DNA from: Escherichia phage SDYTW1-F1-2-2_3
Sequence record: OR296290.1
Length of the DNA: 64,000 nt
Strand: one strand, 5' to 3'
Positions 10,262-62,422 of the stretch are shown one piece after another. Position 1 is the first letter of the stretch. The number at the start of each line of letters is the position of its first letter. The position numbers and the translations under genes were made by a program. Below the pieces are notes generated by a model. It was given only the letters and a program-made list of their open reading frames with translations. It had not been told where the DNA came from and made no database searches.

Positions 10262-10486
10262 TTAGATACCTTTAAGTTTAAGAATTTCGTTACGAGTTTT
10301 TTGAATCTGAGCTTCAATTTCGAAGTAGTCGTTGAACGCATCGTTCTCTACTTCATCGGATGGTGCATCAATCAGACCGAAAGCGAACGGATACAGCTTC
10401 CGCTGCTCCGTTACTAATTCGATATGAACTCCTATATAATACTGTAGGAGAGTGATCTTTGGTTTCTTAGGAACCAGATTTGACAT
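10262..10486 (-). CDS. hypothetical small protein (74 aa)
   Basis: Between ATP-grasp and GAT-II genes. Confidence 0.4.
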   Translation of the reverse strand: MSNLVPKKPKITLLQYYIGVHIELVTEQRKLYPFAFGLIDAPSDEVENDAFNDYFEIEAQIQKTRNEILKLKGI

Positions 10487-10700
10487 GAGGTTCTACCTTA
10501 ATGCCTTTGATTTTTACATAATCAGCAAGTACGTTATTGATCACCGTTGGGAAAGGAACCTCAACCTGTGTCTCAAGTACTTGACCAATACCAGCTTGCA
10601 TCCACTTCTGGATTGCACGAAGGTTATCACATCCTGTGCTCGTCATCGGGATACGTCGAGTAGTTACAACGTTATCCAGCATCATCTTACGAATTTCCAT
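10467..10700 (-). CDS. hypothetical small protein (77 aa)
   Basis: Immediately downstream of the GAT-II gene. Confidence 0.4.
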   Translation of the reverse strand: MEIRKMMLDNVVTTRRIPMTSTGCDNLRAIQKWMQAGIGQVLETQVEVPFPTVINNVLADYVKIKGIKVEPHVKSGS

Positions 10701-28148: not shown

Positions 28149-28906
28149 TTAAAGAGCGGTAAATCTGTCAGTGTGCTTTCTCACACTACGCAACTGTAAG
28201 CCGTTGTTTCGCTTTTCACTGAAGCGGTGATTTGCCTAGTGAGTACGCTCATTATGGACCATGATGTTTTCGCTGTCAACCGCTTTTTTAATCTTTTTCG
28301 TCGTTCCCGCTATTGGGAGGATATATCAACCAGCTTTATTTGATTGAAGATTAAGCGGTGAGGCTTAACTCATGATTCACATTGTTAAAGAGCGTTTAGC
28401 CTTTTATAGTGTCTGCTAATCACTGCATCATTAAAGGCTTACTTATTCATTAACGGGGCGCCTAAGCCCGAACTAATCGCCGCACTGTGTGCCACCTTTC
28501 CCGCGATACGTTGATTTGGGAACTAGTTAACGTTGTTTTGTTAACTTGTGGTTAGTATGAACTACCTTAACCACGTTTGCAACCTCTTTTTTATCATCTT
28601 CTTTTATTCTTTTCCCTTATCTCGCGTGAGTCTATGCGAAAGGGCAAGATGATAAGTTTTTAAAGAGCGGGATGCTTTAAGTCATCGCTGACTATGCTCA
28701 CTATATATCAGGCTATTTTCGGTGTCAATACTCTTTTTAAGAATATTTTCACTTTCTAGCCTGATTTTTAAAGAGCGGGGCAATTTCTTGCCTTGTATGT
28801 TTTTCATCGTACCCGATGAATTGAAGTATACGCCAACCAGTGAGTAATGCAATAGGGTAGGGCAAATTATTTTAAACTTTTTCACTATAGGAAGATAAAA
28901 GAGCGG
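28149..28906 (+). repeat. array of five direct repeats with core TTAAAGAGCGG
   Basis: Copies at 28149, 28385, 28660, 28768, 28896; copies 3 and 4 share the 15-mer TTTTTAAAGAGCGGG. Confidence 0.6.
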
Positions 28907-29112
28907 GCGCACGTGATACATCAAAGGAAACGGCTTGTAAAGCGATATTTAGCGGCCTAAAACGCACTGTAGCGAGCTAAAAGGGAGTAAGGTATACAAT
29001 CACCTTAGAAAAGAAAAAAGCCTCATAGTGAGGCTTATAGGAAGGATTTAAAGCATCAGATAGATTATGACCATAGGCATGACCACGGCACAATAAAGGA
29101 GAAAGATTAAGC

Positions 29113-29487
29113 CTATGGATTTATACACTGACCGTTACCGGATTCCATTTCATTCATAGACTCATCAAAGAGCGTCAACGATGAGCGCATCAAGTGATCA
29201 ACCGTAATTTGTTTGCCAGTGGTTTCATTTACCAGTTGAATAGTTTTATCATATGATTGTACATGTTCGAAATCATTTACATGTAAAATAATAACCTTCG
29301 GTGACTTTTTACCAGTATCATAGTTTTCTACAATATAGGTGCACTGTAAACCGTCAACCGTAGCAGGGGAAAACGTTGCAGCCTTAACGCTACCCATAGC
29401 CGACAGCAGGACACCTAACAGGAGAACAACCAGAAAGAAGCCTACAAATACTTTCACTACGAATTTAATAATACCCATGATAATCAA
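29113..29487 (-). CDS. membrane/secreted protein (124 aa)
   Basis: N-terminal hydrophobic segment FVVKVFVGFFLVVLLLGVLLSAMG. Confidence 0.45.
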   Translation of the reverse strand: MIIMGIIKFVVKVFVGFFLVVLLLGVLLSAMGSVKAATFSPATVDGLQCTYIVENYDTGKKSPKVIILHVNDFEHVQSYDKTIQLVNETTGKQITVDHLMRSSLTLFDESMNEMESGNGQCINP

Positions 29488-29580
29488 CCTTTAGTTAGAG
29501 AACGTAAGAATAAAGCATATCAGCGACGAATAACGCCACTGTAACAACGAATAAGCACCGCCAAAAACAATCATGAATCA

Positions 29581-29847
29581 TTAGTTGCCTTTACCTTTAA
29601 ATAACGCTACTCTAAGCAGTTCGATCTCTTCCAGTGAAAGAAGAATCCGACGTTGCGCCAAATACTGACCAGCTAGAAGTGAATCCATGATGAGAGCAAC
29701 AGCGGGAAAACTCACCGTTTTAATATTATCGCCGACAATAAACAAGATTAAACACTTGTCAGAGTCATCCGTATATGAGAAATCGATCTCACCGTAATTG
29801 TGGGTTGGGATAGTAAAGCTGTATTCTTTATTCATTTTTGTCACCAC
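29581..29847 (-). CDS. hypothetical protein (88 aa)
   Basis: Track ORF in central island. Confidence 0.4.
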   Translation of the reverse strand: MVTKMNKEYSFTIPTHNYGEIDFSYTDDSDKCLILFIVGDNIKTVSFPAVALIMDSLLAGQYLAQRRILLSLEEIELLRVALFKGKGN

Positions 29848-30092
29848 TTAGGCAAATCACAATCAAGAAGACCAGCAAGCGACAAATCACCGTCAATGTA
29901 GATCGACTTGAAATCATCACGGGTAATTTCAAAATTAGCAAAGGCTAACCAATCCTTAAGAGGCTGAAATTCCATCCTGCAAAAAGTGATAACAGGCAAG
30001 ATTATCTGACCGTCAAGTGTATTAAACATGATAGAGCTTCCACCAACAAAACAAGAAAAACCGTTAGATAATTTAACTTCTTTAATAGCCAT
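29841..30092 (-). CDS. hypothetical protein (83 aa)
   Basis: Track ORF in central island. Confidence 0.4.
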   Translation of the reverse strand: MAIKEVKLSNGFSCFVGGSSIMFNTLDGQIILPVITFCRMEFQPLKDWLAFANFEITRDDFKSIYIDGDLSLAGLLDCDLPKW

Positions 30093-30118
30093 TTTTTACA
30101 CTCCCAAAAATAGATTAT

Positions 30119-30610
30119 TTACTTACTGGCCTTGATGCAGTTGGCTAGATTAACGTGAACTGTATAAACAGCATTATCAGTGTTATTGTAAACCGTGGTG
30201 GCAAGTATTGATTCATTCATCGGGCCATAACTGACCAGATTCGTGACAGCTTTCGCATGGCTGTAACGTTGTACAGTGCCATACGTCACCATATCCGCAT
30301 CATTATCAGTGCGCTTAAGTACCAGATCATTGTTAGGCTGATTGTCCAGTGTTTTGGTACTAACGACCAGACCATTACGAGAAACGTTACTAAATTTAAC
30401 TTTTAAAACTACTTGATTAGTGTCACTATCCGCACCATTGCAAATCATCCAACCCTTACTAACAGAATTAGCGAAGACACTAGCGGCATCAGTTGCAGGG
30501 GCAGGACTAGCAACAGCCTTATCAGAAAGAGATGTGACCAGTGCACTAACACCGATAGCTGCAACCAGTGCATAGCTTGCCAGATTTACTACCTGCATTA
30601 CCTTAGCCAT
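30119..30610 (-). CDS. secreted protein with signal peptide (163 aa)
   Basis: MAKVMQVVNLASYALVAAIGVSALVTSLS signal-like N-terminus. Confidence 0.5.
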   Translation of the reverse strand: MAKVMQVVNLASYALVAAIGVSALVTSLSDKAVASPAPATDAASVFANSVSKGWMICNGADSDTNQVVLKVKFSNVSRNGLVVSTKTLDNQPNNDLVLKRTDNDADMVTYGTVQRYSHAKAVTNLVSYGPMNESILATTVYNNTDNAVYTVHVNLANCIKASK

Positions 30611-30913
30611 TTGTTAACCCTCGTTAATATGTATTTAGTTTTTATGTTTCACAAGATAGCACATATTTCTACTTCATACGTAGGGTCATTGCTCAGTTGA
30701 CCACTTCACTGACTCGATAGTGTCCCAGCTTTCACCAGTCAATCGCAGAGTCCTTATCTTTAAACATTCTCCACTACTTAGGACGATTATCCTTCATGGA
30801 GCTTACTACCATCTAGCTACTTTGCATCACTGCTTCGCTTCGATGAATACAATTTACTACTTCTTAATAAAGAAAGCAAGTCCTACGGGTAAAATATTTC
30901 TACTATCTCTATA

Positions 30914-31327
30914 GGACGGGGAACATACAACCGCAGAACAGACCACGGGGAAACATAGCAAGATAGTGCGGTAATAATATACCACTTAAATAATTGTATA
31001 ACTCAAACATCAAAGACCATTCGCTACGCTCATGCACGCTGAAAAAGAAAGTAATAAAAGAAATAATAACATACATCAATCATTATCCACTTAATTAATA
31101 CATACATCATTATTGCACTCATAATCATCACTATTGAAACTATTTACATTCAAACTATGGGGAACGTGGGCTATTACTTATGGGTATTATATCGCCTTAA
31201 ACTATTGGTACAGTGAGGGACTAGCCTTTCTCTCACTCAGTAAAGGGGAACTAAATAAACGGGTAGGTAATGAATAGGATGGTATACACGGGGAAAGAAT
31301 AACGGGGAGTAGGCACGGGGAAAGGTT
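30914..31327 (+). repeat. cluster of six ACGGGGAA-core direct repeats
   Basis: Copies at 30914, 30943, 31158 (TGGGGAAC variant), 31289, 31302, 31315; CACGGGGAAAG exact at 31288 and 31314. Confidence 0.55.
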
Positions 31328-31517
31328 GGAACGTTGATAGGGATGTAAAGGCATTGCCAATAACCATTTTTTATTTGAGGACTCCCCCTTTTTAACAATT
31401 CGCCGCGGGGTGCCTAGCCCCACTCGGTCAAATCAGAATTTTAAACAGATATATACATCTTTATTTTTTATAAATCTGTATTTTAAACTCTTATATATAA
31501 GGTTAAGAGAGAACTTA

Positions 31518-31679
31518 ATGAATCTAATTAAAGTATTTAGACGGATGAAGTGTAAGCACAATTACTATCTTCTTCGTAAAGCTTACGGGGATGAAAGAAT
31601 ACATGGTCTCTACCTATCAACATGGAAGTGTAAGGAATGTGGTAAGTTGAGATTCAGTACATGGGTGGATAGGCCTTAA
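31518..31679 (+). CDS. small zinc-ribbon-like protein (53 aa)
   Basis: Track ORF trimmed to ATG 31518 (AGAGAGAA SD); CKHN...CKECG. Confidence 0.4.
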   Translation: MNLIKVFRRMKCKHNYYLLRKAYGDERIHGLYLSTWKCKECGKLRFSTWVDRP

Positions 31680-31687
31680 CGTGACAT

Positions 31688-31772
31688 GGCCTTTATGACA
31701 TGAGGGTGCCTTTATGAAGTCCCCTTTACATCAGAGATTATGGGTAGGCCTTTAGATGATAGTGCCTTTATG
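31688..31772 (+). repeat. three GTGCCTTTATG-type direct repeats
   Basis: Copies at 31688-31697, 31707-31716, 31763-31772, plus variant GGCCTTTAGATG at 31748. Confidence 0.45.
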
Positions 31773-31807
31773 GGTAAAACCCCTCCCTTTTCAGAGGAGA
31801 TATAAAA

Positions 31808-32080
31808 ATGATTCTAGACTTTTTATCAGAGTTGATTCCTTACTTCCGCACTGAAAAATGTGCATTTAAAGTTGAAGAAGTTGGGGGCACTGAAGTAATA
31901 ACTTGTTTGGGTAGATTAGTAGACCTAGACGATGATGAAGATTTTGATGTTACAATAGACCTGAGTTCATTGGGCTGGTTGTACATGAGATGCTTTGTAA
32001 CCTACAAGGCTGAGACTTATAAAGACTATCGTTATAGTGATAACACTGACACTGACACTGAAGGAGAGAATGATGAATAA
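31808..32080 (+). CDS. hypothetical acidic protein (90 aa)
   Basis: Track ORF; C-terminal DTDTDTEGENDE. Confidence 0.45.
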   Translation: MILDFLSELIPYFRTEKCAFKVEEVGGTEVITCLGRLVDLDDDEDFDVTIDLSSLGWLYMRCFVTYKAETYKDYRYSDNTDTDTEGENDE

Positions 32081-32729
32081 CAATATGACAGGAACTAATA
32101 CACTGAATGCAATCTATGAGAACATGGGATGTAAAGGCGAGGTTGTTTTCAATGGTGGTCCTCTCCGTCCTTTATCAGAGGACATTCTCTATCTGAACCG
32201 TGTTCATGAAACTACTGGAGGTAAGTCCCAAGTTGAGATGGTAAAACAACTGGCTCATGGTTCTGTGTATGGTTATGCTCCTCCAACCCGTGAAATATGG
32301 GAAGGTTTGATTCCTCGTACAGAAGCTAAAGATGTGAAAGACTATTTCACTGTAGCAAAGGAAGTTAAACGTAAGTGTCCTTCCAATCTAGAAGTTGTTC
32401 CGTATGTATCTACTAAACATGATCATCTCCCTGACTATGCTCGTGCAATGATTGAGATGATTGAAGAAGCTGAATATGAAATGCTCCATGATTACATTAC
32501 CTCCAAAGACGAATGGCATCGTGATGTTCGAATCGAAGAGGATGGTACGGAAACAATTACGTGGATTCACAAGAGTGAGTTAGTAGACGACGCACTGCGA
32601 GACTACGAAAAATTTTTGGTCGACGGCTCTATTCTTTTAGAGGAAGAGAAGGGTGTAGAACTTCCGTGGGAGGGTGAGATAGTTACTTTAGGTAAGATGT
32701 TTAACCTGTCCGTTGGTGATTGTAAGTAA
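32070..32729 (+). CDS. hypothetical protein (219 aa)
   Basis: Start moved to ATG 32070 after AAGGAGAG SD; terminator follows. Confidence 0.5.
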   Translation: MMNNNMTGTNTLNAIYENMGCKGEVVFNGGPLRPLSEDILYLNRVHETTGGKSQVEMVKQLAHGSVYGYAPPTREIWEGLIPRTEAKDVKDYFTVAKEVKRKCPSNLEVVPYVSTKHDHLPDYARAMIEMIEEAEYEMLHDYITSKDEWHRDVRIEEDGTETITWIHKSELVDDALRDYEKFLVDGSILLEEEKGVELPWEGEIVTLGKMFNLSVGDCK

Positions 32730-32734
32730 TGTTT

Positions 32735-32757
32735 GCCTCCCTTGGGAGGCTTTTTGT
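32735..32757 (+). terminator. intrinsic terminator
   Basis: GCCTCCCttGGGAGGC then TTTTTGT. Confidence 0.65.
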
Positions 32758-32785
32758 GTTGTTGATAATGTAGAAGGAGTATAAA

Positions 32786-33259
32786 ATGTTTGGAGAAAAC
32801 GGAGAACTCACACCTGCACAGGTAGCTGAGATTACAGGAAGATTACCCGGAGTAACGGAAGAACTTGAAGGCCGTGGTATGAACCCAAGCAATGGGAAGT
32901 TTCAAAAGGGAAATAAATTCGGACGACCCAGAGGTAGTAGAGGTAAACTGACACAATTAATGTTGGACCGTGTTGCTGCAAGTCATTTGTCTCCTGATGA
33001 AGTGTTAATTCAAATTTACGAAGATCCTAATATTCCACCTGATCTTAGATTCAAGGCTGCATCAAAAGTTGCAGATCTGGTATATCCTAAGGCGGCCTCT
33101 GTTGAAGTTAAGATTGAGGAAGAGAATGTAATTAACGAAGAATCATTGAATGCACAAATCAAGGACTTCTTGACTGGAGCACTTGGTATCGATGTTATGC
33201 CTCCAGAAGAAGACAACTCTGAGGACGCTGAAAAGGGGGAGGAAGCGGACGAGAGTTAA
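32786..33259 (+). CDS. putative terminase small subunit
   Basis: Immediately upstream of TerL; basic GNKFGRPRGSRG motif; acidic C-terminus. Confidence 0.45.
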   Translation: MFGENGELTPAQVAEITGRLPGVTEELEGRGMNPSNGKFQKGNKFGRPRGSRGKLTQLMLDRVAASHLSPDEVLIQIYEDPNIPPDLRFKAASKVADLVYPKAASVEVKIEEENVINEESLNAQIKDFLTGALGIDVMPPEEDNSEDAEKGEEADES

Positions 33260-33420
33260 TTAAAGGAAACAGGGAGCTGTCGAAGATCATCTGATTAACA
33301 ATCTAAGGGTTGTTATAGTTTTATTGCCACGATGTTCTTTTACAGTGTACCCTTGTAGTGGAGAGGGGAGGTTCTTTGACGAAGGGACTTTCCCTTTTCT
33401 ATTTTTAAACTGGAGGAAGT

Positions 33421-34962
33421 ATGTCATTAGATAAACAAATTTATGAAGCTCTAACTGGTAACAATCTTAGTGTAGAGGAAAAGAAAGCACTATTGAATAT
33501 GTTGAAAGAGCGTGACCAATGGAGGAAGTATAATAGGATTTTGTCTTTCAAGGCGTATGACTTCCAAAAGAAATTTTATGCAGCAGGATTGAAGCATCGC
33601 TTTAGATTCTTGTGTGCAGCGAACCGTGTTGGTAAATCTTATAGCGAGGCATACGAGTTTGCTTGTCATGTCACAGGTCGCTACCCAACTTGGTGGACAG
33701 GATATAAATTTAAAAGACCTATCTTAGCATGGGCAGTTGGTATTACAGGGGATTCCACAAGGAAAGTATTGCAAAAGGAATTGTTTGGTACACCTATCGG
33801 AAAGGATACAAACTTATTAGGGACAGGTGTCATTCCTCGTGATGCTATCGTCATTGATACGATAGAACGAGATGGTAACAAACTTCAAATCGTACAAATC
33901 AAACATCAAAATGAGAGAGGAGAGTTTGACGGTTTAAGTACATTAGAATTCCGTTCAACCCAACAGGGTGAACACACATTGATGGGTGCAACAGTTGACT
34001 ACATTTGGTTAGACGAAGAAGACCCATACGAGTCTATGGCTATATTCGCACAGTGCGTCACACGTACACTCACAACTAAAGGTCTAGTTACAATTACAGC
34101 TACACCAGAGAACGGTTTAACTGAACTGGTAGATAAATTTATGAAAGGTGAAGGGGATGAGAACACAGGTTCTCTATATTTCCAGAATGCTTCTTGGTGG
34201 GATGCTCATGCAGACCTAGGTGGACACATCACTGACCAAGATATAAAAGATATGACTGAAGGTATTCCAGCGTGGCAGTTAGAGATGCGTTCAAAAGGTA
34301 TGCCATTGTTAGGAAGTGGTTTGATTTATGATGTATCGGATGACACAATTAAATGTGAACCATTCGAAATTCCTGATACGTGGAAACGTGTCTGTGCAAT
34401 TGATATTGGTATTGATCACCCAACTGCTGCTGTTTGGACAGCTTACGACGCAAACACGGATACTATCTATGTTTACGACTCATATAAAGAAGGTGGCTTT
34501 ACTCCAGTGTATCATGCTCCAGCTATTAATGGTCGTGGTCAGTGGATTCCTGTCATCCTACCGCATGATGCGGACAATACTGAGAAAGGTAGTGGCTCAT
34601 CTGTTGCTCAATTCTATAAGAATGCAGGAGTTAACGTACAGAGTGAGACCTTCTACAACAAAATTGGAATGGATGGTAAAAAGAACTTCTTTGTAGAACC
34701 GGGAATCACAGATATCCGAGAAAGAATGATGAGTGGACGCTTTAAAGTCTTTAACACAGCCGCTAACGCTAAGCTATTCGAAGAGAAAGCTAGATATCAC
34801 CGTAAGGTTGGTAAGATTATTAAAGAACATGATGACTTAATGGATGCAATGCGCTATTCAGCTTGCTCTGTTACACATCGTGGTCGCTCTAAGCATGATG
34901 TTAGCTACGGAAGCGCTTCTTTGTATGAGGCAAACGTAAGCAGATGGAATCAGAGCTACTAA
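33421..34962 (+). CDS. terminase large subunit
   Basis: Walker A-like CAANRVGKS, Walker B IWLDEED, C-terminal nuclease-like region; followed by terminator. Confidence 0.85.
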   Translation: MSLDKQIYEALTGNNLSVEEKKALLNMLKERDQWRKYNRILSFKAYDFQKKFYAAGLKHRFRFLCAANRVGKSYSEAYEFACHVTGRYPTWWTGYKFKRPILAWAVGITGDSTRKVLQKELFGTPIGKDTNLLGTGVIPRDAIVIDTIERDGNKLQIVQIKHQNERGEFDGLSTLEFRSTQQGEHTLMGATVDYIWLDEEDPYESMAIFAQCVTRTLTTKGLVTITATPENGLTELVDKFMKGEGDENTGSLYFQNASWWDAHADLGGHITDQDIKDMTEGIPAWQLEMRSKGMPLLGSGLIYDVSDDTIKCEPFEIPDTWKRVCAIDIGIDHPTAAVWTAYDANTDTIYVYDSYKEGGFTPVYHAPAINGRGQWIPVILPHDADNTEKGSGSSVAQFYKNAGVNVQSETFYNKIGMDGKKNFFVEPGITDIRERMMSGRFKVFNTAANAKLFEEKARYHRKVGKIIKEHDDLMDAMRYSACSVTHRGRSKHDVSYGSASLYEANVSRWNQSY

Positions 34963-52201: not shown

Positions 52202-53236
52202 ATGGCATATGGAATATGGACAACACCAGCCGGGCCGGGACCAGCTTCTCCGGCTGAGCTTTTTATCGACAGTGGTACTACTTTCCCTCAATTAAGAAAC
52301 AGGGTCAGTGGTAATTTCACCTTTAATGGCAAAACATGTGATCTACCTATCAGTGGGTGGGATGGTAGTGGTCAGATAGTTATAGTACCTACAGGTTCTG
52401 TGGTTTGGGAACGATACATACCTCCTAACGTAACATCAGACGTCTACTGGCTAACTAATATATCTGTTATTAACAGGTCTACTTTCAGAGTTACTATGGA
52501 TTACAATGTTAATGGTTGGATATTTGATATGGCTTTTAATGTTTATCAAATCTGGCCTAGGGCGAATAGAAACTACGGCATAACCTTTTCCAACTCAGCA
52601 GATTACTTCTCTATCTCTGATGCAGGTGTTGTTGGTCAGTGTATCTGGGCTTGGGAGGGAAATATAAATAGTTCTATGCAAATCCCAGCTATTAGCGGTT
52701 TTGATATGAATAGAGCGTCTGTTTTTGCTAACTGGAACAACGGGAGTGCTGGACTGCTGTATAACCCTTCTAACAGGACTGTGTATGTTTATCAAAACAG
52801 ATCTCATAATAACGGGAACACAAACCAAACAGGCTCTATTAGCGGCGTTAGAATCGCAGTATTCTGTGATGGTGCGGGAGTTCCTACTCACAACGGTGGA
52901 CTAAACATATATTCCCCTAATGGTTCTCAATGTGTATTTTCCACATACAGAACACCTTTCATGGTTGATAGGTTTATGCCTATGAGTGGGGGCAATACCA
53001 CATTGTCATACCCTATGATTCCTCTTTCTTATGGAGCTGGAGCCATAAGAGGAAGCGCTAGTGGATGGTATTTCCAACATGCAAGATCTCACACAATGAG
53101 TGGTTCTTCCTTTGGTACAGGTTATGGTAGGATGATCTATTCTTGGTCCAACCAATATGACTTAGGTGGAGGTGGGGCTATTGGTTTAAACATCCCAGTC
53201 CTAGATGCTAGGAAGATTTTTAGAAGCATACAATAA
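52202..53236 (+). CDS. virion protein (putative)
   Basis: 344 aa, tightly coupled to upstream gene. Confidence 0.5.
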   Translation: MAYGIWTTPAGPGPASPAELFIDSGTTFPQLRNRVSGNFTFNGKTCDLPISGWDGSGQIVIVPTGSVVWERYIPPNVTSDVYWLTNISVINRSTFRVTMDYNVNGWIFDMAFNVYQIWPRANRNYGITFSNSADYFSISDAGVVGQCIWAWEGNINSSMQIPAISGFDMNRASVFANWNNGSAGLLYNPSNRTVYVYQNRSHNNGNTNQTGSISGVRIAVFCDGAGVPTHNGGLNIYSPNGSQCVFSTYRTPFMVDRFMPMSGGNTTLSYPMIPLSYGAGAIRGSASGWYFQHARSHTMSGSSFGTGYGRMIYSWSNQYDLGGGGAIGLNIPVLDARKIFRSIQ

Positions 53237-53245: not shown

Positions 53246-54028
53246 ATGGCAATTAGAATGGGTATAGAAGAACTAGACCCGATGGTTCAACAGGCTTCAA
53301 AGAAGTATGGAATACCAGCTGCTTTGATTCATGCTGTAATTCAAAGGGAGTCTAGTGGTCGTCCTAAAGTGGCTTCCGGAACTGGTCCTGTTGGTTTAAT
53401 GCAGATCAGTAAAGGGTTAGCCAAAGACTATGGTTACAAACTAGAAGACAGACTTGACCCAGCAAAGAATATCGATATGGGTGCTCGTTATATAAGAGAT
53501 AACCTGAAAGCTTTCAACGGTGATGTTAAGAAAGCAATGGTTGGTTACTCAGAAGGAACTGGTGGTGCTAAGCAGATGTTCGCTGGTAAGAAAGGATTTA
53601 CTCCTCAAGCTCTTGACTCAATGAACAACAAACACTTCCTCCCGTTTTATGGTGATGCAGCTTCTCAGATTGCTAACCCAATTGGAGCTTTGCAAGCTGT
53701 TCAACCAGTCAATCAGTTTAATCCTGACTTGTTAGACAGAGAGAAGGCTGCACAAGCTCCCACTCAGGCAGAGATTGCTGCTTCTAAGACAGGTGCTTTA
53801 GGTGGTAATCCGGTAGAGTTTTACTCTGATGAAGTCCAAGAAGGAGAAGACCAGAAGCCTCAACAGAACTTTGGTAATGCAGTATTAGGAGTAGCTGCTA
53901 TGCTTGCTGGTAAACCTCCTACATCTCAAACAGTTCAGAGAGCGAGTGCACCACATGCGGCAGGTTCTCAGTACAGCCCACAAACACAAGCAGTGCTTAG
54001 ACGTTTGGCTAGCATTGGTGTTAAGTAA
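53246..54028 (+). CDS. lytic transglycosylase (SLT domain) virion protein
   Basis: AALIHAVIQRESSGRPKVASGTGPVGLMQI SLT catalytic motif. Confidence 0.75.
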   Translation: MAIRMGIEELDPMVQQASKKYGIPAALIHAVIQRESSGRPKVASGTGPVGLMQISKGLAKDYGYKLEDRLDPAKNIDMGARYIRDNLKAFNGDVKKAMVGYSEGTGGAKQMFAGKKGFTPQALDSMNNKHFLPFYGDAASQIANPIGALQAVQPVNQFNPDLLDREKAAQAPTQAEIAASKTGALGGNPVEFYSDEVQEGEDQKPQQNFGNAVLGVAAMLAGKPPTSQTVQRASAPHAAGSQYSPQTQAVLRRLASIGVK

Positions 54029-54047: not shown

Positions 54048-55100
54048 ATGTCTTTATTTGGAAAATCAGCTTCTAGCAAAACCACAGTGGCTCCTTCCTC
54101 TCAGGTTGATGCCCTGCTGAAGCAGATTGTTGCTAATGCTCAGAATATGCAGAACAACGATCAGGGATTTATTTCCCAACAGCTGGCTGGGTTTAATGGC
54201 AACCAACAAGGTGCTCTGAATAACTTAGCAGCTTCTACAACTCAAAAGCAATTGGCTGATATGTACACACCTCGTACACAGCAAGGTTTGGACCAACTGA
54301 ACTCTCTTGCCAAACAGTATCAGAATATTGTTAATGGTGGCGGTTTAACTGCTGATGGTGTTAACAACTTTAGTAAAGGATTAAATAGCTCAGCTCTTGC
54401 TCAGGCTACTAGCAAAGCAGCTTCTAATGTTTCTCTTGGCAATGGCTCTGATTCAGGCTCTCTCCGTAGGGCTGCGGCTCAAGGGGCGGCTTTGAATGGT
54501 GCTAATACAAATCTATCTCGTACCATCAATGGTAAGAACATGGGAATCAGTGCTCTTCAACAAGACCAGAACTTCCAGAGAGGTTTGCTTGGTGCTCAGT
54601 CTGGTTTAGCTGGACAGAATCTCAATCTTGGTGCTCAAGGTGTTCAGTCAACTCAGCAAGCTATCCAGAATCAACTTATGGCTGGTAATCTACAACAGCA
54701 ACAAGCTCAAGCTCAAGCAGATATCAATTGGCAAAACGCTATTGGTTCTCAGCAGTATGGATGGAATCAGCTTAACAACCAGCTTAATGTATTAAACAGT
54801 GTAAGCCCAATGGCTGGATACACAATTAAGAATGCTGCTCCGGGGGTTAATACTGGACAACAGCTCCTAGGTGCTGGTATCACTGGTTTAGGTATTGCAG
54901 GTCGTATGGGAGCTTTCTCTCCTAACCAACAGACTCAGAATGCTTGGAGTTCCTATAACAACTCAGGTGGGCAGTCTGGTATGGCTGGTCCTATGATTGG
55001 AGGTTCTAATCTTTCTCAACAGAAAGGTCAGTCTAACTGGTTATCCACAACGGGTAATAATATCTTAGGCGGTGTCTTAGGGGCATTCGGAGCAAACTAA
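54048..55100 (+). CDS. Gln/Asn/Gly-rich low-complexity protein (paralog 1)
   Basis: 350 aa; N-terminus MSLFGKSASSKTT...GFNGNQQGALNNLA parallels the next gene. Confidence 0.5.
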   Translation: MSLFGKSASSKTTVAPSSQVDALLKQIVANAQNMQNNDQGFISQQLAGFNGNQQGALNNLAASTTQKQLADMYTPRTQQGLDQLNSLAKQYQNIVNGGGLTADGVNNFSKGLNSSALAQATSKAASNVSLGNGSDSGSLRRAAAQGAALNGANTNLSRTINGKNMGISALQQDQNFQRGLLGAQSGLAGQNLNLGAQGVQSTQQAIQNQLMAGNLQQQQAQAQADINWQNAIGSQQYGWNQLNNQLNVLNSVSPMAGYTIKNAAPGVNTGQQLLGAGITGLGIAGRMGAFSPNQQTQNAWSSYNNSGGQSGMAGPMIGGSNLSQQKGQSNWLSTTGNNILGGVLGAFGAN

Positions 55101-55112
55101 AGGAGATTTGAT

Positions 55113-56081
55113 ATGGCTTTATTTGGAGGAGGGAATAGTAAAACTACTTCCCAAATGATTCGCCCTGAATACATTCAACAGTATATTGACCAGCTTAACC
55201 AACAGATTGGTAATACTAGTTCAGGGGATTATGTTTATCGTGACAATGTAGGATTTAATAACAACCAGACAGAAGCTCTTAACAACTTGGCACAATCTGG
55301 CGCTCTAGGGACTCTCTCGCAGCAATATATGGATGCAGCAGGTCAAGGGTTAGGTTATCTGGATAATGCCTATAAAGGCTACCAGAGCCTCTCTGGACAA
55401 GGTGGGATTACTGGAGAACAGATTGGTGCTCTTGCTGGTCAACTGTATGATGACGATGCTGTGCAAGCAGCTATTACAGCTAATAATGAACAAGTTCAAC
55501 AGAACCTAGCACGTAATGCTCTTCCTCAGCTAGCTCAACAGTATGCTGGTCAGCAGGGTTCAGGTGCTCGTATGGCTAAGTCTTTTGCTCAAGGTGATGC
55601 TCTGAATCAGATGCAAAGCCAAGCAACAGATATTACTAACAGTGCTTATAACTCGGCTATCAACCAAGCTGAAAGCATTCTCTCTGGTAATAGACAGAAT
55701 CAGGCAGCTGCTCTCTCAGGTCTTTCTACTATTGGTTCTAACCTTTCCAATTTAGGTCAACAAGGTGCTGATCTATCTCAACAACAAATATTAAACCAAT
55801 GGAAGGCTGGGTTGCAGCAACAACAGCAACAACAGAATGAATATGATAATGCCTACCAGAATGCTCAGAACGCAGCTAATTGGGGATGGCAAGATATCAA
55901 CAACCAACTCGGTGCAGCAGGTGTACTTAACGGCGCTCTCGGACAAACTACAACTACTAAAACATCTGGTGGGGGTGGTGGCTTCTTAGGTGGAGCTATG
56001 AGTGGTGCAGCAGCTGGCTCTTCTTTTGGTCCTTGGGGTGCCTTGGCTGGAGGGGTGATTGGCGGGATGGCTAGTTCTTAA
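55113..56081 (+). CDS. Gln/Asn/Gly-rich low-complexity protein (paralog 2)
   Basis: 322 aa; MALFGGGNSKTT...GFNNNQTEALNNLA. Confidence 0.5.
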   Translation: MALFGGGNSKTTSQMIRPEYIQQYIDQLNQQIGNTSSGDYVYRDNVGFNNNQTEALNNLAQSGALGTLSQQYMDAAGQGLGYLDNAYKGYQSLSGQGGITGEQIGALAGQLYDDDAVQAAITANNEQVQQNLARNALPQLAQQYAGQQGSGARMAKSFAQGDALNQMQSQATDITNSAYNSAINQAESILSGNRQNQAAALSGLSTIGSNLSNLGQQGADLSQQQILNQWKAGLQQQQQQQNEYDNAYQNAQNAANWGWQDINNQLGAAGVLNGALGQTTTTKTSGGGGGFLGGAMSGAAAGSSFGPWGALAGGVIGGMASS

Positions 56082-56094: not shown

Positions 56095-57774
56095 ATGCAA
56101 CAGACAACTTACGCTCAGGTCAGAAGTCGTGACCCGAGAAATACTTTCTATGGTGTTAATCCGGGAGCGGCTTCGGCCTCTCCTTATATGGCTAGACCTA
56201 CTCAGACAGCGGATGTTTCTATGTACCAGCGTCCTGCTGTACCTTCATCTCTCGCAGGTCTTGTCTCTCAGGCAGAAGAAGATCAGAATGCTATGGTGAA
56301 TCCGGGATTCCAGCAACGTCTTATGGAACAACAGAATCAAGGAACCCCAACAAGTCTTCAGGGTATTGACATTGGAGCACCAGCCCCTGTAGCAGCTAAT
56401 CCTAATTTATCTACTGATCAAGGTTTGCAGGATGCTGGACTTATGCCTAGTGACCCTCTTCCGGTGACACCTCCTGCCAAGCCACTAGAAACTGGTCCTA
56501 TGGAGTTTACTCCTTCTCAGGTTGAACAAGCACAAGGTGTTGTTAATACTCTTGCTCAAGGACAAGACACCGGTGACGGAATGGCTGCTGCTACTCGTAC
56601 TAAAGATCAAGAGCGTGTTAACAATGATATCTTGCAAGTTGCAAAAGCTAAAGATCCTTCAGAAGCTTGGAAGAAGTTACAGAAAGAACCTTTCTATCAG
56701 AACTCTAGTTTCTATACAGGTTTAATGGGTGTAGGTCTTTCTATCATGTCAGGTAAATCTCCTATCGAAGCATTCCAGATTGGTCAGGGGATGGCTAATC
56801 AAGATGAGACTAAAAAGCAACTGGAAGCTAACCGTGATGCTCTGATTGAACAAGGTTTCTCTCAAGACTCAATTGCAGCTGCTATAGCTCAGGGTGATCC
56901 TTCTCTTCTGAAGATGAAAGCTAAAGACCCTCTTCAACAGGAAGCTCTGTATGCTGCTCGTGAAGAACGTCAGAATGCTGAGTGGGATAGACGTCAAGCT
57001 ATCAATGAAGAATCTGCTGAGAGAAACCGTAAGGCTACTTTGGAAAATCAGTTAGCTCTGGCGGAAGCGCGTGGTGAGATTACTCGCGACAACCTTTTGT
57101 TCAAGAAGGATCACAATGTTCGTAGAACATCTCCCAAGTGGGAAAAAACAGAGGAGCTTGGTGGTATTACTCCTAACTTGCGAGATAAATTACAGCAATC
57201 TTATCGTCCTGTTATTAATGTCCTAGCTTCTCGAAACAAGTGGATGGCTCCTACAGAGGCTGCTATTTCTAAACTAGGAACTGGTGCAAATTCTCAAGAG
57301 AACTCAGCTCAGCAACGTGCTGCTATTGAGAACTTGACTAAACTTATTCAGGGTGGTTTAGCTTCTATTAACGGAGAAGTTATGAATGAGCTTACAGGTG
57401 ATCCAGATTGGGTTAACAACAAGTTGAATAAGATTCAGATGATGGCAGGTCAAGGTCCGACCGAAGCAAATATCAAGTGGCTTAAAGCACTCGGTACAGA
57501 GATTCAAGAGATTGATAAAGAGGCAACTAAGTACCAAGTAGCCCCTCTAGTGGAATCTTTGATTCTTGATAGTGGTTTGGCTCCTGAAAATGCTATCAGA
57601 GCTGCTAACTCTATTTTTGCTCCTGGCTCTGTTCGACTCACTACTGAGGAGTTTAAAGAATGGTCTCGTGGACATAGTAAAGTTCACGATAAAACATTCC
57701 CTGATGACAAGCCTTCTAAATTGAAGGGTGGTGCTTTATCTGGTTCTTCAGATACTAGCTGGTTCACTCAATAA
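56095..57774 (+). CDS. internal virion/ejection protein (putative)
   Basis: 559 aa in late block after SLT and Q-rich genes. Confidence 0.45.
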   Translation: MQQTTYAQVRSRDPRNTFYGVNPGAASASPYMARPTQTADVSMYQRPAVPSSLAGLVSQAEEDQNAMVNPGFQQRLMEQQNQGTPTSLQGIDIGAPAPVAANPNLSTDQGLQDAGLMPSDPLPVTPPAKPLETGPMEFTPSQVEQAQGVVNTLAQGQDTGDGMAAATRTKDQERVNNDILQVAKAKDPSEAWKKLQKEPFYQNSSFYTGLMGVGLSIMSGKSPIEAFQIGQGMANQDETKKQLEANRDALIEQGFSQDSIAAAIAQGDPSLLKMKAKDPLQQEALYAAREERQNAEWDRRQAINEESAERNRKATLENQLALAEARGEITRDNLLFKKDHNVRRTSPKWEKTEELGGITPNLRDKLQQSYRPVINVLASRNKWMAPTEAAISKLGTGANSQENSAQQRAAIENLTKLIQGGLASINGEVMNELTGDPDWVNNKLNKIQMMAGQGPTEANIKWLKALGTEIQEIDKEATKYQVAPLVESLILDSGLAPENAIRAANSIFAPGSVRLTTEEFKEWSRGHSKVHDKTFPDDKPSKLKGGALSGSSDTSWFTQ

Positions 57775-57794: not shown

Positions 57795-57805
57795 TAATGT
57801 ATATA
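57795..57805 (+). promoter_or_regulatory. candidate phage promoter element TAATGTATATA
   Basis: TAATGTATA at 57795-57803 and 40288-40296, AATGTATATA on minus strand at 2883-2892; each 33-38 nt upstream of a start codon. Confidence 0.35.
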
Positions 57806-57841
57806 GGGGGTAGGACATTTTTATTTATAAAAGGAGACGTT

Positions 57842-60800
57842 ATGGCTAACATTAAACCGTGGGAAGAAGCTTCCAAAGCTCCTGCGTATCTGAATGCCTC
57901 TCCGGAGCGTCAAGCTCAAATGAGAGAACAATATAAGGCAGCAGGTGGCTCTATTCCTGAGGAACGACCAGTGGCACAACCACAACAAGAAGAACGTGGT
58001 GTTATTGGTGAGTTTGCTCAAGGTGTGTCAAATGCTCTTCAATCTGGTGGTGCAAACATCGCAGCTAGTACTGCTAGAGGTGTTGGTGGTTTGGTTGAGC
58101 TTGGTGAAAACCTAGCTGGAGCACAAACTAGTTATGGTAAGCGTATCCAAGAGAATGCTCAAAACCTCTTGAAAGAACGTATGGATAAGATTGAGGATGG
58201 GATTGGTAAAACTGCCGGTCAGTACGCTGGAGTGGCTGCCGATATCGGTTTGACAGTTGCTAGCCCATTAACTGCCGCTGCTGTCATCGCAGGTCGTGAG
58301 ACAGGTCGTGCATATGCAGACCAAACCCCTGAAGAGGGAGAAGATAAGTCTGTTCTGGATGCAGCTCTAGTCGGTGGTGCTAACTATGCAGCTATGAGAA
58401 TCCTTCCGGGTGCTGTTGGTACAGCTGAGTCCACACTTGGACGTATTGGTCAGAACGTTGCTTCTAACGCAGTGGCTGGTGCTAAAGGTGGTGCTCTTAT
58501 TGGTGCTGCTGAAGCTCAGAACAAATATGGTGATGACAATGATCTAGCTAAGACACTAGAAGGTGTTATCACAGAAGGGGCTATGGGTGCTGCATTTGGT
58601 GGTGCAGTTGGTGGGGTTCATGGTTTGATTAGTCGTCCGGATTCTGCTGTCTTTAGGAACACTCCAGAGTATGCGAAGACTGATATTGCTGCTGATGATG
58701 AGTTGATTCGTAGTGCTAAGAATATTGATGAACTGAAAGAAGCCTACTCTAAAGCTGAAACTGCTAATGCTGCTTCTGCCCTTAATCTTCTGGATGAGAA
58801 TGGATTCCGTATCACAGATGCTGTTGCTGTAGATTCTCCTGCTGCTCAGCGTATTCTTAATACAGACCAAGCTCGTGCTGAGAAAGCTGCTTCTGCTCAG
58901 AAAGACCACTCTAACATCCCGGGCCTTAATCCTTTGGCTGCCCCTGCTAAGACTCGTGGTAAAGCTTTCGCTGATAATGAGCACAACCAGAAACAGGCTG
59001 TTGCTATGAAAGATGCAATGGCTGATTACACCAAGGATAACACTAAAACTCTTACAGATGTTCTAGATAATCTAGATCGTGAATTAACCTCTCTCCGAGC
59101 TTCTGGTGACTTTACTGGCAGCCCGATTGATATTAAGAATCGCACACAAGCTGACCGTGATTTCATTGATGCTTACAAGACTTTCTATAATGAAGCAAAC
59201 CGATTCAAAGCTCGTGATGGTGAAGACTTTAACAACTTTGTAGAGAAAGCTACTGAGCTACAGAAGATGGCTGATAACGTTTCTCCAGAGATGAAGAAAG
59301 CTATTGGTGGGTTGAAAAAACTGAAGGGTATGCCTGAAGGTTTTAATCCTATCCAAGACGCTTACACTCTGAACAACACAGCTAAGTTTATGAGCAACCA
59401 AGATCGTGGTTGGACTTCCCTAACTGACGACGGCTTCCGTGAGGCTTCTTCTCCTAGTCTGGTTATGAACACCCTTGGTGCTGCTAAGTATGCTCTGAAT
59501 CGCTTCTCTTCTCAGCGTGCTCGCTCTCAACGTGTTAAACAACAAGAATCTAACAGTGAAGCTATCCGCTCTCTGGCTCGTGGTGATTTGGAAGTTGCTC
59601 GTGCTAAATCTACTGCTGATGAAGCTCGTGCTAAAATGGAAGAAGAACCAGTTGTTGATGACATTAATTTTAAGACGCAAAATGACGTAGAAACCGAACC
59701 GGTTCGGGAGCCTTCTTCTAGTACTGTGACGGAAGAAAATCTTCCTTCTTCTGCTCTTCAAGATTCCCCTCTTACAGCTCGTGATTTAGTTGCGCAAAGA
59801 CGTGCTATCCGTCAGGCTGAACAGCGTCGTGCTGAAGAAGAGGCGGCGGCAGCTCGAGAAGCTCCGGTTGAACAGGCTCCACAGGCTGAACCTCTCCCTG
59901 CTCGTAATCCTTTAGAGGAGCGTCGTGCAATAGAGCAGCAACGTGCTCAAGAAGAGGGCCAAAAGGCTTCATCAGAGGATGCATCTTCTGTTACTAAAGA
60001 ATCCCTCTCTCACTATGCTGAAGATGGGATACTTTCTCAAGACTTAAATGGCAACATTGCTCTTCGCCTAAACCAGTTCACCCCAGCTGAGCAACAGTTT
60101 TTGCGTAACCATAATTTGGTTGACTCAAACGATATGGTCAAAGCTAGTTCTCTAAGACAAGCTGATCCATTACCTGCTCGTGCTCCTAAAGCTCCTAAGG
60201 AAGCTGTACAGGACGTTAAACCGGCAAGTGGTGTAGAACGCTTAGCTGCTATGTCTAGTGCTGCTCGTCAGGCTACTAAAGATCGTGCAGAACGTTTTGC
60301 TCGTTCTCTGTATTCTAAGGCTGCTAAGGCTAAAGCTACTGCTGAAAACTTCTTGGCTTACAAGGGTGATCCTAAGGAATTGATGCGTCGTATTCGTCAG
60401 GAAGATAATGCTATCAACACTGAACGTCATGAAGAGATGGCTCGTAATCAGCTAGCTTCTCAGCAAGGTATTGCTACTGCTAAGAACAACACTGTACGAA
60501 CTAACTTTGCTGAATGGGTTAAGGAACGTGGTCTGCCAGAAGACATTGCTACTAAGGCATTACGTGCTGAAGAGAAAGGTTTAGGTGGGAACGTAACTAA
60601 CTTGGATAGTCTTAAACGTCGTGCTGAAAGGTTGTATCAGAAGCAGCGTGAGGATGAGTTTGATAGACTGTATCAACAAGCTCTAGAAGAGAATAAAGCT
60701 TTCGACAAGAAAGATGCTCCTAAACTGGTTGACCAGAAGAAAGAGCTTCAATCTGAGATTGATACTTTGGTTGATTCAGAACCTTTACGTCCTGCTCAGA

Positions 60801-62422
60801 AAGATGCTATGCGTAAGCTGATGAATGATTATGTAGATGGGAAGTTTAAATCTTCAGAGAAAGCTGGTAGGGAAGAGGCTTTGGAAGTTGGTCAGATGAA
60901 GGATGTTTGGGATGGGTTTATTAACACCTATAACAGAGAAGTGAATGCCTTCAACAAAGCTAACAAGAACTCTCAATATGAAGCTGCTGCTAAACACTTG
61001 CAGGCTCGTGAAGAACGTCTTGCTACTCTGAAAAATAAGGCACAGGCTCGTTCAGATGCTAAAGCTGCTGTTGAGAATGAACGTAAGACTCTAGAGGCTA
61101 TTGCAGCTCAGAAGAGTGAGATTGAGAAGATGATGGAAGGTTTACCTAAGCCTGTTCGTGAAGCTCAGGAATCTCGTACATTGAAACAGTTGGCTGCTCA
61201 CCATGATAAGAACTCTCCAGTTCCTCCAGAGAAGTTCCGTAGTTACATTGAACGTATCCATAACGCCGAGTCAGATTACCTTGACCGTCAGCGTCGTTTA
61301 ACTGATGCAGAGGAAGATGCTCGTCAGGATAAGTGGAACAAGATGTATGAGCAAGCGGAAGAGATGGACCGTAAGTTTGATATAGACAAAAGAGTTAAGC
61401 GCAGTGAAGAGCTTAAAGCTGCTCAGAAGCGTGAGAATGACCTTATGGCAGTACAACGTCAACGTGATGACATTCATCGCCGCCTGATGCATACTATGGA
61501 AGATAAGGGCATATCTAGAGAGGATGCTGAAGCATTTGCTGGTTCCTACATGGATAACCGTTATGCACTTCTTGAGAAGCCTATGACTCCTACTGAACAT
61601 CAGAATGCTCGTTCTCGTATCGAGGCTGATGTTGAGAAGTTTGCTAAGAAGTACGAATCAATGACCCCTATCGAGAAAGAGATTGTTAAGATTACTGGAG
61701 ATACTGAAGGTAAGCTTGATAACTTGGATGCGGATACTAGGAAGGCTGTTGAGGAGGCTCAGAAGGTTGACTCTGATATTAAGAAACTGCAAGAGGAAGA
61801 GTTGGAGATGGAGAAGATTCGTTCTGCTCTGCCTGACGATGAAAAATCTCAAGCAAATTCTGATATCTTGGAAAGTATTAAGCAGCAGGAAGAAGTCTTT
61901 GCTGATAAAGTAGAGAAAGCTTTCTTGAGTGGGAAGAGCTTGGATGAGTTAGCTAGTGTGGCTGAAGTTTTAGACAGGGTTCATGGTGCAGACAAGGCTG
62001 GTAACAACCGTCGCTTTGTACGTGCATTGCAGACTGCTGCTGAAAACAAGAAGAAGTATGGTGATAATCCGGTAGCTTGGTTTAGTGCTGATGATTATTC
62101 TGCTATTGCTAAACTTGGTGCTTCTTCCGCAGGTGGTAACAAATCTAGAGCACTGGAGAAGATCTTTGGTTCTACAGCTGAACAAGCTAAGAGTAAGTTG
62201 CTTGGCAGGGATGATGTAGCTAAGATGAGACGTGTGATTGAAGAGAACCCTGATGTTAAGATTCCTTCTTACAAGACAACGAATCGTACTGAGTACTTGC
62301 AGTTCTTGGAGAAGTTTAATGACGAAGGGAAGCCGAAGATTAAACGTGGCTCATTGTCAGAGAAGCTTGAACGCAGTAAGCGTCAATCGAGACTCCGTGT
62401 AAGAGTTCGACCTAAGGAGTGA
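57842..62422 (+). CDS. giant Ala/Glu/Lys-rich coiled-coil protein (1526 aa), putative internal/ejection protein
   Basis: Start moved to ATG 57842 (AAGGAGA SD); preceded by TAATGTATATA motif; ends at convergent terminator. Confidence 0.5.
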   Translation: MANIKPWEEASKAPAYLNASPERQAQMREQYKAAGGSIPEERPVAQPQQEERGVIGEFAQGVSNALQSGGANIAASTARGVGGLVELGENLAGAQTSYGKRIQENAQNLLKERMDKIEDGIGKTAGQYAGVAADIGLTVASPLTAAAVIAGRETGRAYADQTPEEGEDKSVLDAALVGGANYAAMRILPGAVGTAESTLGRIGQNVASNAVAGAKGGALIGAAEAQNKYGDDNDLAKTLEGVITEGAMGAAFGGAVGGVHGLISRPDSAVFRNTPEYAKTDIAADDELIRSAKNIDELKEAYSKAETANAASALNLLDENGFRITDAVAVDSPAAQRILNTDQARAEKAASAQKDHSNIPGLNPLAAPAKTRGKAFADNEHNQKQAVAMKDAMADYTKDNTKTLTDVLDNLDRELTSLRASGDFTGSPIDIKNRTQADRDFIDAYKTFYNEANRFKARDGEDFNNFVEKATELQKMADNVSPEMKKAIGGLKKLKGMPEGFNPIQDAYTLNNTAKFMSNQDRGWTSLTDDGFREASSPSLVMNTLGAAKYALNRFSSQRARSQRVKQQESNSEAIRSLARGDLEVARAKSTADEARAKMEEEPVVDDINFKTQNDVETEPVREPSSSTVTEENLPSSALQDSPLTARDLVAQRRAIRQAEQRRAEEEAAAAREAPVEQAPQAEPLPARNPLEERRAIEQQRAQEEGQKASSEDASSVTKESLSHYAEDGILSQDLNGNIALRLNQFTPAEQQFLRNHNLVDSNDMVKASSLRQADPLPARAPKAPKEAVQDVKPASGVERLAAMSSAARQATKDRAERFARSLYSKAAKAKATAENFLAYKGDPKELMRRIRQEDNAINTERHEEMARNQLASQQGIATAKNNTVRTNFAEWVKERGLPEDIATKALRAEEKGLGGNVTNLDSLKRRAERLYQKQREDEFDRLYQQALEENKAFDKKDAPKLVDQKKELQSEIDTLVDSEPLRPAQKDAMRKLMNDYVDGKFKSSEKAGREEALEVGQMKDVWDGFINTYNREVNAFNKANKNSQYEAAAKHLQAREERLATLKNKAQARSDAKAAVENERKTLEAIAAQKSEIEKMMEGLPKPVREAQESRTLKQLAAHHDKNSPVPPEKFRSYIERIHNAESDYLDRQRRLTDAEEDARQDKWNKMYEQAEEMDRKFDIDKRVKRSEELKAAQKRENDLMAVQRQRDDIHRRLMHTMEDKGISREDAEAFAGSYMDNRYALLEKPMTPTEHQNARSRIEADVEKFAKKYESMTPIEKEIVKITGDTEGKLDNLDADTRKAVEEAQKVDSDIKKLQEEELEMEKIRSALPDDEKSQANSDILESIKQQEEVFADKVEKAFLSGKSLDELASVAEVLDRVHGADKAGNNRRFVRALQTAAENKKKYGDNPVAWFSADDYSAIAKLGASSAGGNKSRALEKIFGSTAEQAKSKLLGRDDVAKMRRVIEENPDVKIPSYKTTNRTEYLQFLEKFNDEGKPKIKRGSLSEKLERSKRQSRLRVRVRPKE

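Follow-up and report, generated by a model that had tools for sequence, protein, structure and literature searches.

The virion module of Escherichia phage SDYTW1-F1-2-2_3 (sequence record OR296290.1) carries two adjacent genes, here called A and B, at positions 54,048 to 56,081 of the 64,000-nucleotide stretch that we analyzed (the window). Their products are dominated by Gln, Asn, Gly, Ala, and Ser, which raises the question of whether they are ejected internal proteins, as their position implied to an earlier note on this DNA, or bear prion-like, phase-separating domains, as their composition implied to it. Both open reading frames (ORFs), of 350 and 322 amino acids (aa), lie on the plus strand exactly where the earlier note had placed them, and both are preceded by a strong Shine-Dalgarno (SD) sequence (AAGGAGG for A and AAGGAG for B). 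The window belongs to a Kuravirus: its DNA is ∼92–98% identical to that of Kuraviruses, the phiEco32/SU10-like coliphages, with values of 98% for phage 172-1 and 91.9% for SU10. Amino-acid identity to the SU10 proteins is 95.4% for A (against SU10_021) and 96.3% for B (against SU10_022), and the calculated masses of 35.9 kDa and 33.3 kDa equal those reported for SU10 gp21 and gp22. These orthologs share equal lengths and the same cassette, in which a lytic transglycosylase (SLT) gene is followed by gp21, gp22, gp23, and gp24, and nothing substantive distinguishes them from A and B. Both genes are labeled "DNA ejection protein" in the RefSeq entry of phage 172-1, and the SU10 gp22 ortholog of B carries the label "putative DNA injection protein". 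Both proteins also match phrog_4287, "DNA ejection protein" (E = 4.8e-117 for A and 8.1e-108 for B), while neither matches a Pfam family at E ≤ 0.01.

Published experiments on SU10 bear directly on this question. Mass spectrometry of SU10 preparations detected both gp21 and gp22 (PMC4281155). In a later cryo-electron microscopy study both were found in virions, packaged in the head with the DNA, and both exit on genome release, being missing from the particles that remain (PMC9509320). The same study reported that gp20 is likewise virion-borne and gone after genome release and that gp23 is ejected, and its authors assigned gp20–24 as ejection proteins (PMC9509320). Presence in the virion together with loss on genome release identifies gp21 and gp22 as ejection proteins, and A and B are very probably ejection proteins as well. 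The ejected-protein interpretation is therefore correct, borne out by experiments on near-identical proteins, and was already published for the genus Kuravirus. In the literature that we searched, no discussion of the paralogy of gp21 and gp22 was found, and a search for the two names in the supplement to the SU10 structural study gave no hits.

Judged by their sequences, A and B are true tandem paralogs with a similarity that exceeds their shared composition. BLASTP with compositional adjustment gave an alignment of 272 aa at 32% identity (E = 5e-13). In Smith-Waterman alignment the pair scored 275, far above the values obtained with global shuffles (93±13), local 20-residue shuffles (111±14), and the reversed sequence (96), corresponding to z = 11–14 against composition-preserving shuffles. 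The alignments also show the alike N-terminal starts described in the earlier note, which read MSLFGKSASSKTT in A and MALFGGGNSKTT in B, and GFNGNQQGALNNLA in A and GFNNNQTEALNNLA in B. The compositional skew is equally real: Q, N, G, A, and S together make up 62.6% of A and 61.5% of B, compared with 31–42% in the six neighboring proteins examined. Gln and Asn account for 26.9% of A and 24.8% of B, and the charged residues K, R, D, and E for merely 6.9% and 9.0%.

Profile searches tie this pair to the Bruynogheviruses. A 234-sequence profile of the family matched gp53 of phage LUZ24 end to end (profile positions 16–337) with 63.9 bits (E ∼1e-20). Among 1000 composition-preserving shuffles none exceeded 6.6 bits, the reversed sequence reached −25.9, and the training sequence nearest to LUZ24 gp53 is 31% identical to it. 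PHROG's own phrog_4287 profile matched the same protein independently (E = 2e-10). A narrow profile built from Kuraviruses alone missed LUZ24 gp53, and the link emerged only with the 234-sequence profile. An end-to-end match that beats every shuffle indicates, on sequence grounds, that Kuravirus gp21/gp22 are homologous to the small ejection protein of Bruynogheviruses, which fits the recognized LUZ24/phiEco32 structural lineage (PMC10386132). LUZ24 gp53 falls in the same size class as A and B, shares with them an N-terminal GG..KTT, a GGT..TT linker, and a C-terminal Gly-zipper, and is likewise encoded upstream of ∼500-aa and >1000-aa ejection proteins, with the short gp52 ORF in between. It differs in being single-copy, whereas the Kuravirus gene is duplicated into a basic A and an acidic B, and in having an N-terminal extension of ∼25 residues.

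The small ejection protein of the Bruynoghevirus Pa223, gp56 (313 aa), has been proposed to form an outer-membrane channel. Mass spectrometry confirmed its presence in the virion, transmembrane helices are predicted near its C-terminus, and AlphaFold3 predicted that it forms a nonameric channel (bioRxiv 10.1101/2025.06.11.659172). Next in order are gp54 (505 aa), which lies around the portal and is a putative periplasmic tunnel, and gp53 (1055 aa), which is gp16-like (bioRxiv 10.1101/2025.06.11.659172). The order in LUZ24 is alike, with gp53 (313 aa, annotated "phage particle protein"), gp51 (505 aa), and gp50 (1055 aa), and by length and synteny LUZ24 gp53 is likely the counterpart of Pa223 gp56. 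As a separate observation, ∼25 residues precede the conserved KGGSKKQKTT module start in LUZ24 gp53 (32257–33198), and in P22 gp7 (9369–10058) a 20-residue propeptide, annotated as cleaved by host OpdA, precedes KGGKGG. By analogy, this parallel hints that LUZ24 gp53 may be N-terminally processed.

Orthologs recovered by word-indexed searches, down to ∼35–41% identity, align into two clean subfamilies, A-type and B-type, that share four landmarks. These are an N-terminal Gly/Thr-rich M-x-LFGG...TT, an AGLN..Q..AL motif, a W/YQNA...W.Q(I/L)NN.LN block followed by G.TT, and a Gly-rich hydrophobic tail. Each protein thus appears to consist of its N-terminus, an all-helical body (∼260 residues) that is poor in charge and enriched in Q, N, A, and S, a GGxTTT linker, and one or two C-terminal glycine-zipper segments (Table 1).

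Table 1. Features of the small ejection protein genes and their cassette (positions in the window)
Feature	Position	Strand	Details
Lytic transglycosylase (SLT) ejection protein, SU10 gp20 ortholog	53246..54028	+	PF01464 E = 2e-24; 97.3% identical to SU10_020
Paralog A	54048..55100	+	350 aa, isoelectric point (pI) 9.9, net charge +8; small ejection protein, SU10 gp21 ortholog
A residues 272-291 (QLLGAGITGLGIAGRMGAFS), glycine-zipper hydrophobic, candidate membrane-inserting helix	54861..54920	+	Top Kyte-Doolittle 19-residue window 1.16; conserved in A-type relatives
A residues 335-350 (TGNNILGGVLGAFGAN), second Gly-rich hydrophobic C-terminal segment, A-type-specific	55050..55097	+	Alignment A1 columns 401-429
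Paralog B	55113..56081	+	322 aa, pI 4.2, net charge -9; small ejection protein, SU10 gp22 ortholog
B residues 19-275, predicted all-alpha body	55167..55937	+	AlphaFold2, block-mean pLDDT (predicted local distance difference test) mostly 70-94
B residues 286-322 (GGGGGFLGGAMSGAAAGSSFGPWGALAGGVIGGMASS), glycine-zipper tail	55968..56078	+	Kyte-Doolittle peak 0.94; sole part aligning with P22 gp7
559-aa ejection protein, SU10 gp23 counterpart	56095..57774	+	phrog_12130 E = 9e-185; 60% identical to SU10_023
Large ejection protein, 1541-aa ORF, SU10 gp24 counterpart	57797..62422	+	phrog_14629; 91.3% identical to SU10_024

The tail also relates A and B to gp7 of phage P22 (PF25688, phrog_598), which is encoded by the first gene of its ejection cluster, is ejected, and has a similar composition. 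The gp7 tail is strikingly like the A/B-type tail (SSTPWGAAIGGGIGLLGSLF compared with SSFGPWGALAGGVIGGMASS), and its C-terminal Gly-zipper aligns together with a PWGA motif. An hhalign comparison of alignment A3 with the gp7 family paired B residues 292–320 with gp7 residues 195–226 at a probability of 84% (E = 7.4e-6). In HMMER searches run without bias correction, gp7 scored 81.6 against the family profile, above all 800 shuffles (maxima 37.6 for global and 73.1 for local shuffling; z = 14 and 6.8, respectively), in two overlapping partial alignments; bias correction removes this score. These comparisons support a candidate membrane-type C-terminal motif common to the A/B family and P22 gp7. 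The two differ in that gp7 is shorter (229 aa compared with 320–350 aa) and is made with a propeptide, whereas A and B begin directly at the conserved motif. P22 gp20 and gp16 gave no signal against the family profile. For T7 gp14 (internal virion protein B), the resemblance is one of position and proposed role. This hexameric outer-membrane pore is the smallest ejection protein, comes first in its gp14-gp15-gp16-like operon, and is membrane-active and helical (PMC8954989). It differs in its length of 196 aa and its 20% of charged residues. T7 further differs from the Kuraviruses in having one such gene in place of two paralogs and in carrying its transglycosylase within gp16 rather than as a separate SLT protein. 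T7 gp13 and gp15 likewise gave no signal against the family profile.

Taken with the homology to LUZ24 gp53 and Pa223 gp56 and the analogy to P22 gp7 and T7 gp14, these data lead us to favor, as the probable explanation overall, that A and B are the Kuravirus small ejection proteins that build the tail-proximal, outer-membrane section of the DNA conduit; whether they form the outer-membrane or proximal channel itself we regard as evenly balanced. In this model, once the tail needle is gone, A and B would pass through the nozzle unfolded and refold as a helical oligomer that extends the nozzle and constitutes the tail-proximal, outer-membrane section of a trans-envelope conduit. Their Gly-zipper tails would lie in the membrane and their helical bodies would line the channel. 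The SLT protein (gp20) would cut the peptidoglycan, the 559-aa and ∼1500-aa proteins would complete the periplasmic and inner-membrane parts, and, more speculatively, A and B might co-assemble.

Several observations weigh against this model. The ejection proteins of SU10, including gp21 and gp22, gave no attributable density (PMC9509320), and for Pa223 gp56, too, an outer-membrane role is only predicted. In profile-profile comparison P22 gp7 shares just 29 C-terminal residues with the A/B family; the hhalign search found no full-length homology, and the helical body is not detectably homologous. Neither A nor B matches Pfam P22_gp7 (PF25688), to which P22 gp7 itself scores 428 bits, and from the tail-only alignment and the missing PF25688 match we conclude that A and B are not members of the gp7 family. 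T7 gp14 gave no sequence signal (18.8 compared with 12.5±3.5 for global and 15.1±2.8 for local shuffles, z = 1.3–1.8). The hydropathy of the Gly-zippers is, in our judgment, marginal (Kyte-Doolittle 0.9–1.2) and below the value expected of a classical transmembrane helix. Finally, the case for an A/B hetero-oligomer is made from charge and co-occurrence, and we consider such an assembly less likely than not.

The best surviving alternative accepts that A and B are ejected and places their action outside the outer membrane: one could serve the outer and the other the inner membrane, or they could line the periplasmic tunnel, or they could plug or extend the nozzle lumen. P22 gp7 offers a precedent, as it may form a virion-proximal extension of the tail hub rather than a true outer-membrane pore (PMC10461980), and the Kuravirus set numbers five ejection proteins instead of three (PMC9509320), such that roles may be split differently. 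The extra C-terminal segment of A-type proteins and the opposite charges of the paralogs would also fit two destinations. However, the position of A and B at the head of the cassette and their homology to the Bruynoghevirus small membrane protein favor the tail-proximal, outer-membrane end, and we consider this alternative unlikely.

A role as cargo or as capsid-internal proteins, which would coat or organize the DNA or act inside the cell and have no structural part in a conduit, is less probable still. Loss from the genome-release intermediate demonstrates exit and nothing further (PMC9509320), and the basic paralog A may, from its sequence, bind DNA. Yet B and the single-copy LUZ24 gp53 are acidic, the hydrophobic glycine-zipper tails are conserved throughout the family and shared with P22 gp7, and A/B-type genes hold a fixed place in ejection-protein cassettes, all of which argue against such a role.

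Predicted structure bears on the conduit model as well as on the prion-like reading of the composition. An AlphaFold2 model of B, built from a 71-sequence alignment, contains helices at residues 19–34, 50–60, 63–95, 101–111, 114–143, and 150–275. Confidence within this body drops to a pLDDT of 68–69 in two 10-residue blocks and lies below 50 for residues 1–14 and 279–322, the Gly-rich tail being unstructured in the monomer model. For A, a model from 30 close sequences reached a pLDDT of 50, which we judged unusable; the last ∼100 residues are unstructured in this low-confidence model. Profile searches of the PDB with narrow (A1) and broad (A2) alignments returned no significant match and no homolog with a solved structure. 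Sub-threshold hits of the Gly-rich tail were to ATP-synthase c-ring helices and lambda gpI, and Pfam Gly-zipper families gave sub-threshold matches in relatives only. A Foldseek search of the PDB with the B model was also without significant result (best E = 0.016, TM-score ≤0.38), returning generic long helical hairpins such as chemoreceptor signaling domains, colicin coiled coils, and ClyA, and a fold search of BFVD gave uncharacterized phage proteins and weak matches named "DNA transfer protein", nothing specific. The predicted fold of B is compatible with the metastable, oligomerizing helical proteins of other ejectosomes (PMC8954989).

The prion-like reading, in which Q/N/G-rich disordered domains would drive condensate formation inside the capsid or the cell, is very improbable in light of this model. 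A and B do have the Q/N-rich, low-charge composition of prion-like domains, and the C-terminal tails are predicted to be disordered in the monomer, in B over residues 279–322 and in A over the low-confidence end of the model. However, the prediction of long helices across residues 20–275 of B argues against an intrinsically disordered body, and conservation is strongly position-specific, with a profile signal that spans hundreds of divergent relatives and survives local shuffling, where a prion-like domain would combine predicted disorder with a lack of such conservation. The description of the proteins as low-complexity holds for their skewed composition and does not extend to the whole sequence, given that a SEG-like measure flagged just 20–25% of each protein as low-entropy. 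The nearest structural analogues of B, moreover, are folded helical hairpins, including chemoreceptor signaling domains. Helical hairpins of the chemoreceptor type are themselves Ala/Gln/Ser-rich. A Q/N/G/A/S-rich, low-charge make-up also occurs in LUZ24 gp53 and in P22 gp7 (57.6% Q+N+G+A+S and 10.5% charged residues), and hence looks like a trait of the small ejection protein class.

An exhaustive profile search with the family yielded 642 representatives at E<1e-3, 80 of them at E<1e-10, and many are 800–1700 aa long, with the A/B module at the extreme N-terminus and phrog_4287 still matched. In one of these (P0152), a Peptidase_S74 domain (PF13884, E = 7e-8) directly follows the Gly-rich segment; two others (P0127 and P0130) have sub-threshold Peptidase_S74 matches, and an S74-type "[hydrophobic]|SD..(L/I/V)K" motif occupies the same spot in 16 of 143 representatives. 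S74 chaperones trimerize and then cleave themselves at a serine. Given this behavior, an S74 domain behind the module suggests by analogy that in the phages bearing it the A/B-like module may be released from a precursor. Two long fusions are encoded in podovirus tail modules with an SU10-type adaptor, past the tail genes and before one more large protein, a relative position that is the same as that of A and B. The breadth and contexts of these matches point to the A/B family as widespread small ejection proteins of podoviruses. That A and B are instead external trimeric fibers or spike-like tail proteins, as Peptidase_S74 domains in relatives and public names such as tailspike, tail fiber, or "chaperone of endosialidase" could suggest, is most improbable, because a Pfam scan found no S74 domain in A or B and only some distant relatives have one, those names were most likely prompted by the S74 domain alone, and portal, adaptor, nozzle, needle, and long and short fibers account for the SU10 tail, with gp20–24 assigned as ejection proteins (PMC9509320).

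Far downstream of the module, 25 of 63 long relatives (at least 560 aa) conserve a W..L.AAGLGMMAG.SPYAGVNIG.GGL.G motif in a Pro/Gly/Ala-rich context (including P0146, P0148, P0152, P0156, P0166, and P0172). This motif has no Pfam match and no significant match among the window proteins. The presence of GLSIMSGKSPIEAFQIGQG in the 559-aa protein, set against AAGLGMMAGxSPYAGVNIGxGGL, prompted the idea that the long relatives join the A/B module to a gp23-like part; we rejected it as unsupported when phmmer and a hidden Markov model of the motif gave no hits at E ≤ 1.

A and B belong to an already known kind of protein. The gene pair was already characterized, in a well-sampled phage genus, and in that respect the finding is largely ordinary. 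The present additions, which refine this kind of protein and do not amount to a new one, are the Bruynoghevirus homology, the tail motif in common with P22 gp7, the conservation of a charge-complementary duplicate pair, and the variants with S74 domains or fusions. Of all virion components of short-tailed phages, the ejection proteins, which enter the host before the genome does, are the least understood, and the present analysis places A and B in a defined, widespread family tied to a Bruynoghevirus protein and, through the Gly-zipper tail only, to P22 gp7. The entry machinery is also of some practical relevance, as Kuraviruses and Bruynogheviruses are being explored for phage biocontrol or therapy.

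The duplication itself is old and has been retained. Among A-type relatives, 52 of 55 are basic (median pI 9.8), and all 45 B-type relatives are acidic (median pI 4.3), the acidic single-copy LUZ24 gp53 resembling B in this respect. Within the genomes examined, the net charges of A and B nearly cancel (+8/−9, +7/−8, +10/−10, and +7/−4). This conserved, nearly balanced split suggests joint action of the paralogs, either within a hetero-oligomer or in two stacked rings; they are probably physical partners, and we infer that they have subfunctionalized. Combining these elements, one could imagine a two-protein ejectosome in which an ancient charge-complementary A+B pair co-assembles as a tail-proximal, outer-membrane, hetero-oligomeric helical channel, and in which an S74-type trimerizing, self-cleaving chaperone frees the module of distant relatives, which would imply a threefold-based stoichiometry for channels of this class, a scheme that we consider doubtful as a whole.

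The retention of both copies is accompanied by conserved gene order. The five-gene ejection cassette begins with the SLT gene, and the order SLT, A, B, a ∼550-aa protein, and a ∼1500-aa protein, which closes the late (virion) operon, is shared by the window, SU10, 172-1, a diverged contig, and an E. coli prophage. On the SU10-like element of a 389-kb E. coli contig the last two proteins of the cassette measure ∼500 and ∼1100 to 1500 aa, and the same cassette occurs on a 62.6-kb contig, where A and B have ∼42–48% identity to those of the window. The more general order of one or more small proteins, a ∼500-aa protein, and a protein of at least 1000 aa is common to LUZ24, the E. coli prophage, and the diverged contig.

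Two observations concern these contigs. On the 62.6-kb metagenomic contig, a 129-aa Endonuclease_7-family gene (10109–10498) lies exactly between the A-type and B-type paralogs and is probably a mobile nuclease insertion. The 389,554-bp E. coli contig DAHCAP010000002.1 (assembly GCA_023211535.1) carries within positions 1–20969 the Pfam families SU10_MCP and SU10_portal, followed by SLT and proteins of 334, 322, 498, and 1113 aa. Enterobacter records, with contigs as long as 318 kb, also contain similar B-type proteins (P0097). The phiEco32/SU10-like lineage is usually regarded as strictly lytic, and SU10-like modules on large host contigs suggest integrated or temperate relatives.

Around A and B in the window, the earlier note had described an SLT gene on the 5′ side and two large proteins on the 3′ side, and this is what we found. 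By its place in the order, the 559-aa protein stands where the periplasmic-tunnel (gp15-like) protein would be expected, a role assigned to it by position, and the product of the 1541-aa ORF stands in place of a gp16-like inner-membrane protein. The start of the latter probably lies at the ATG at 57842, giving a protein of 1526 aa that begins MANIKPWEE, since an AAAGGAG is found 5 nucleotides upstream of this codon and no SD sequence precedes the ATG at 57797.

The cassette and the tail genes beside it show local hypervariability. A 344-aa DUF6453 gp19-like protein (52202–53236) is 62% identical to its SU10 counterpart and the 559-aa protein 60%, whereas the genes between and after these two are 91–97% identical to those of SU10, a mosaic pattern. 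Elsewhere in the window, the GC skew switches sign near 30–32 kb, from negative on the left to positive on the right, a change noted over about 28000–34000, and the lowest G+C content of the window (0.38–0.40) falls near 30–32 kb.

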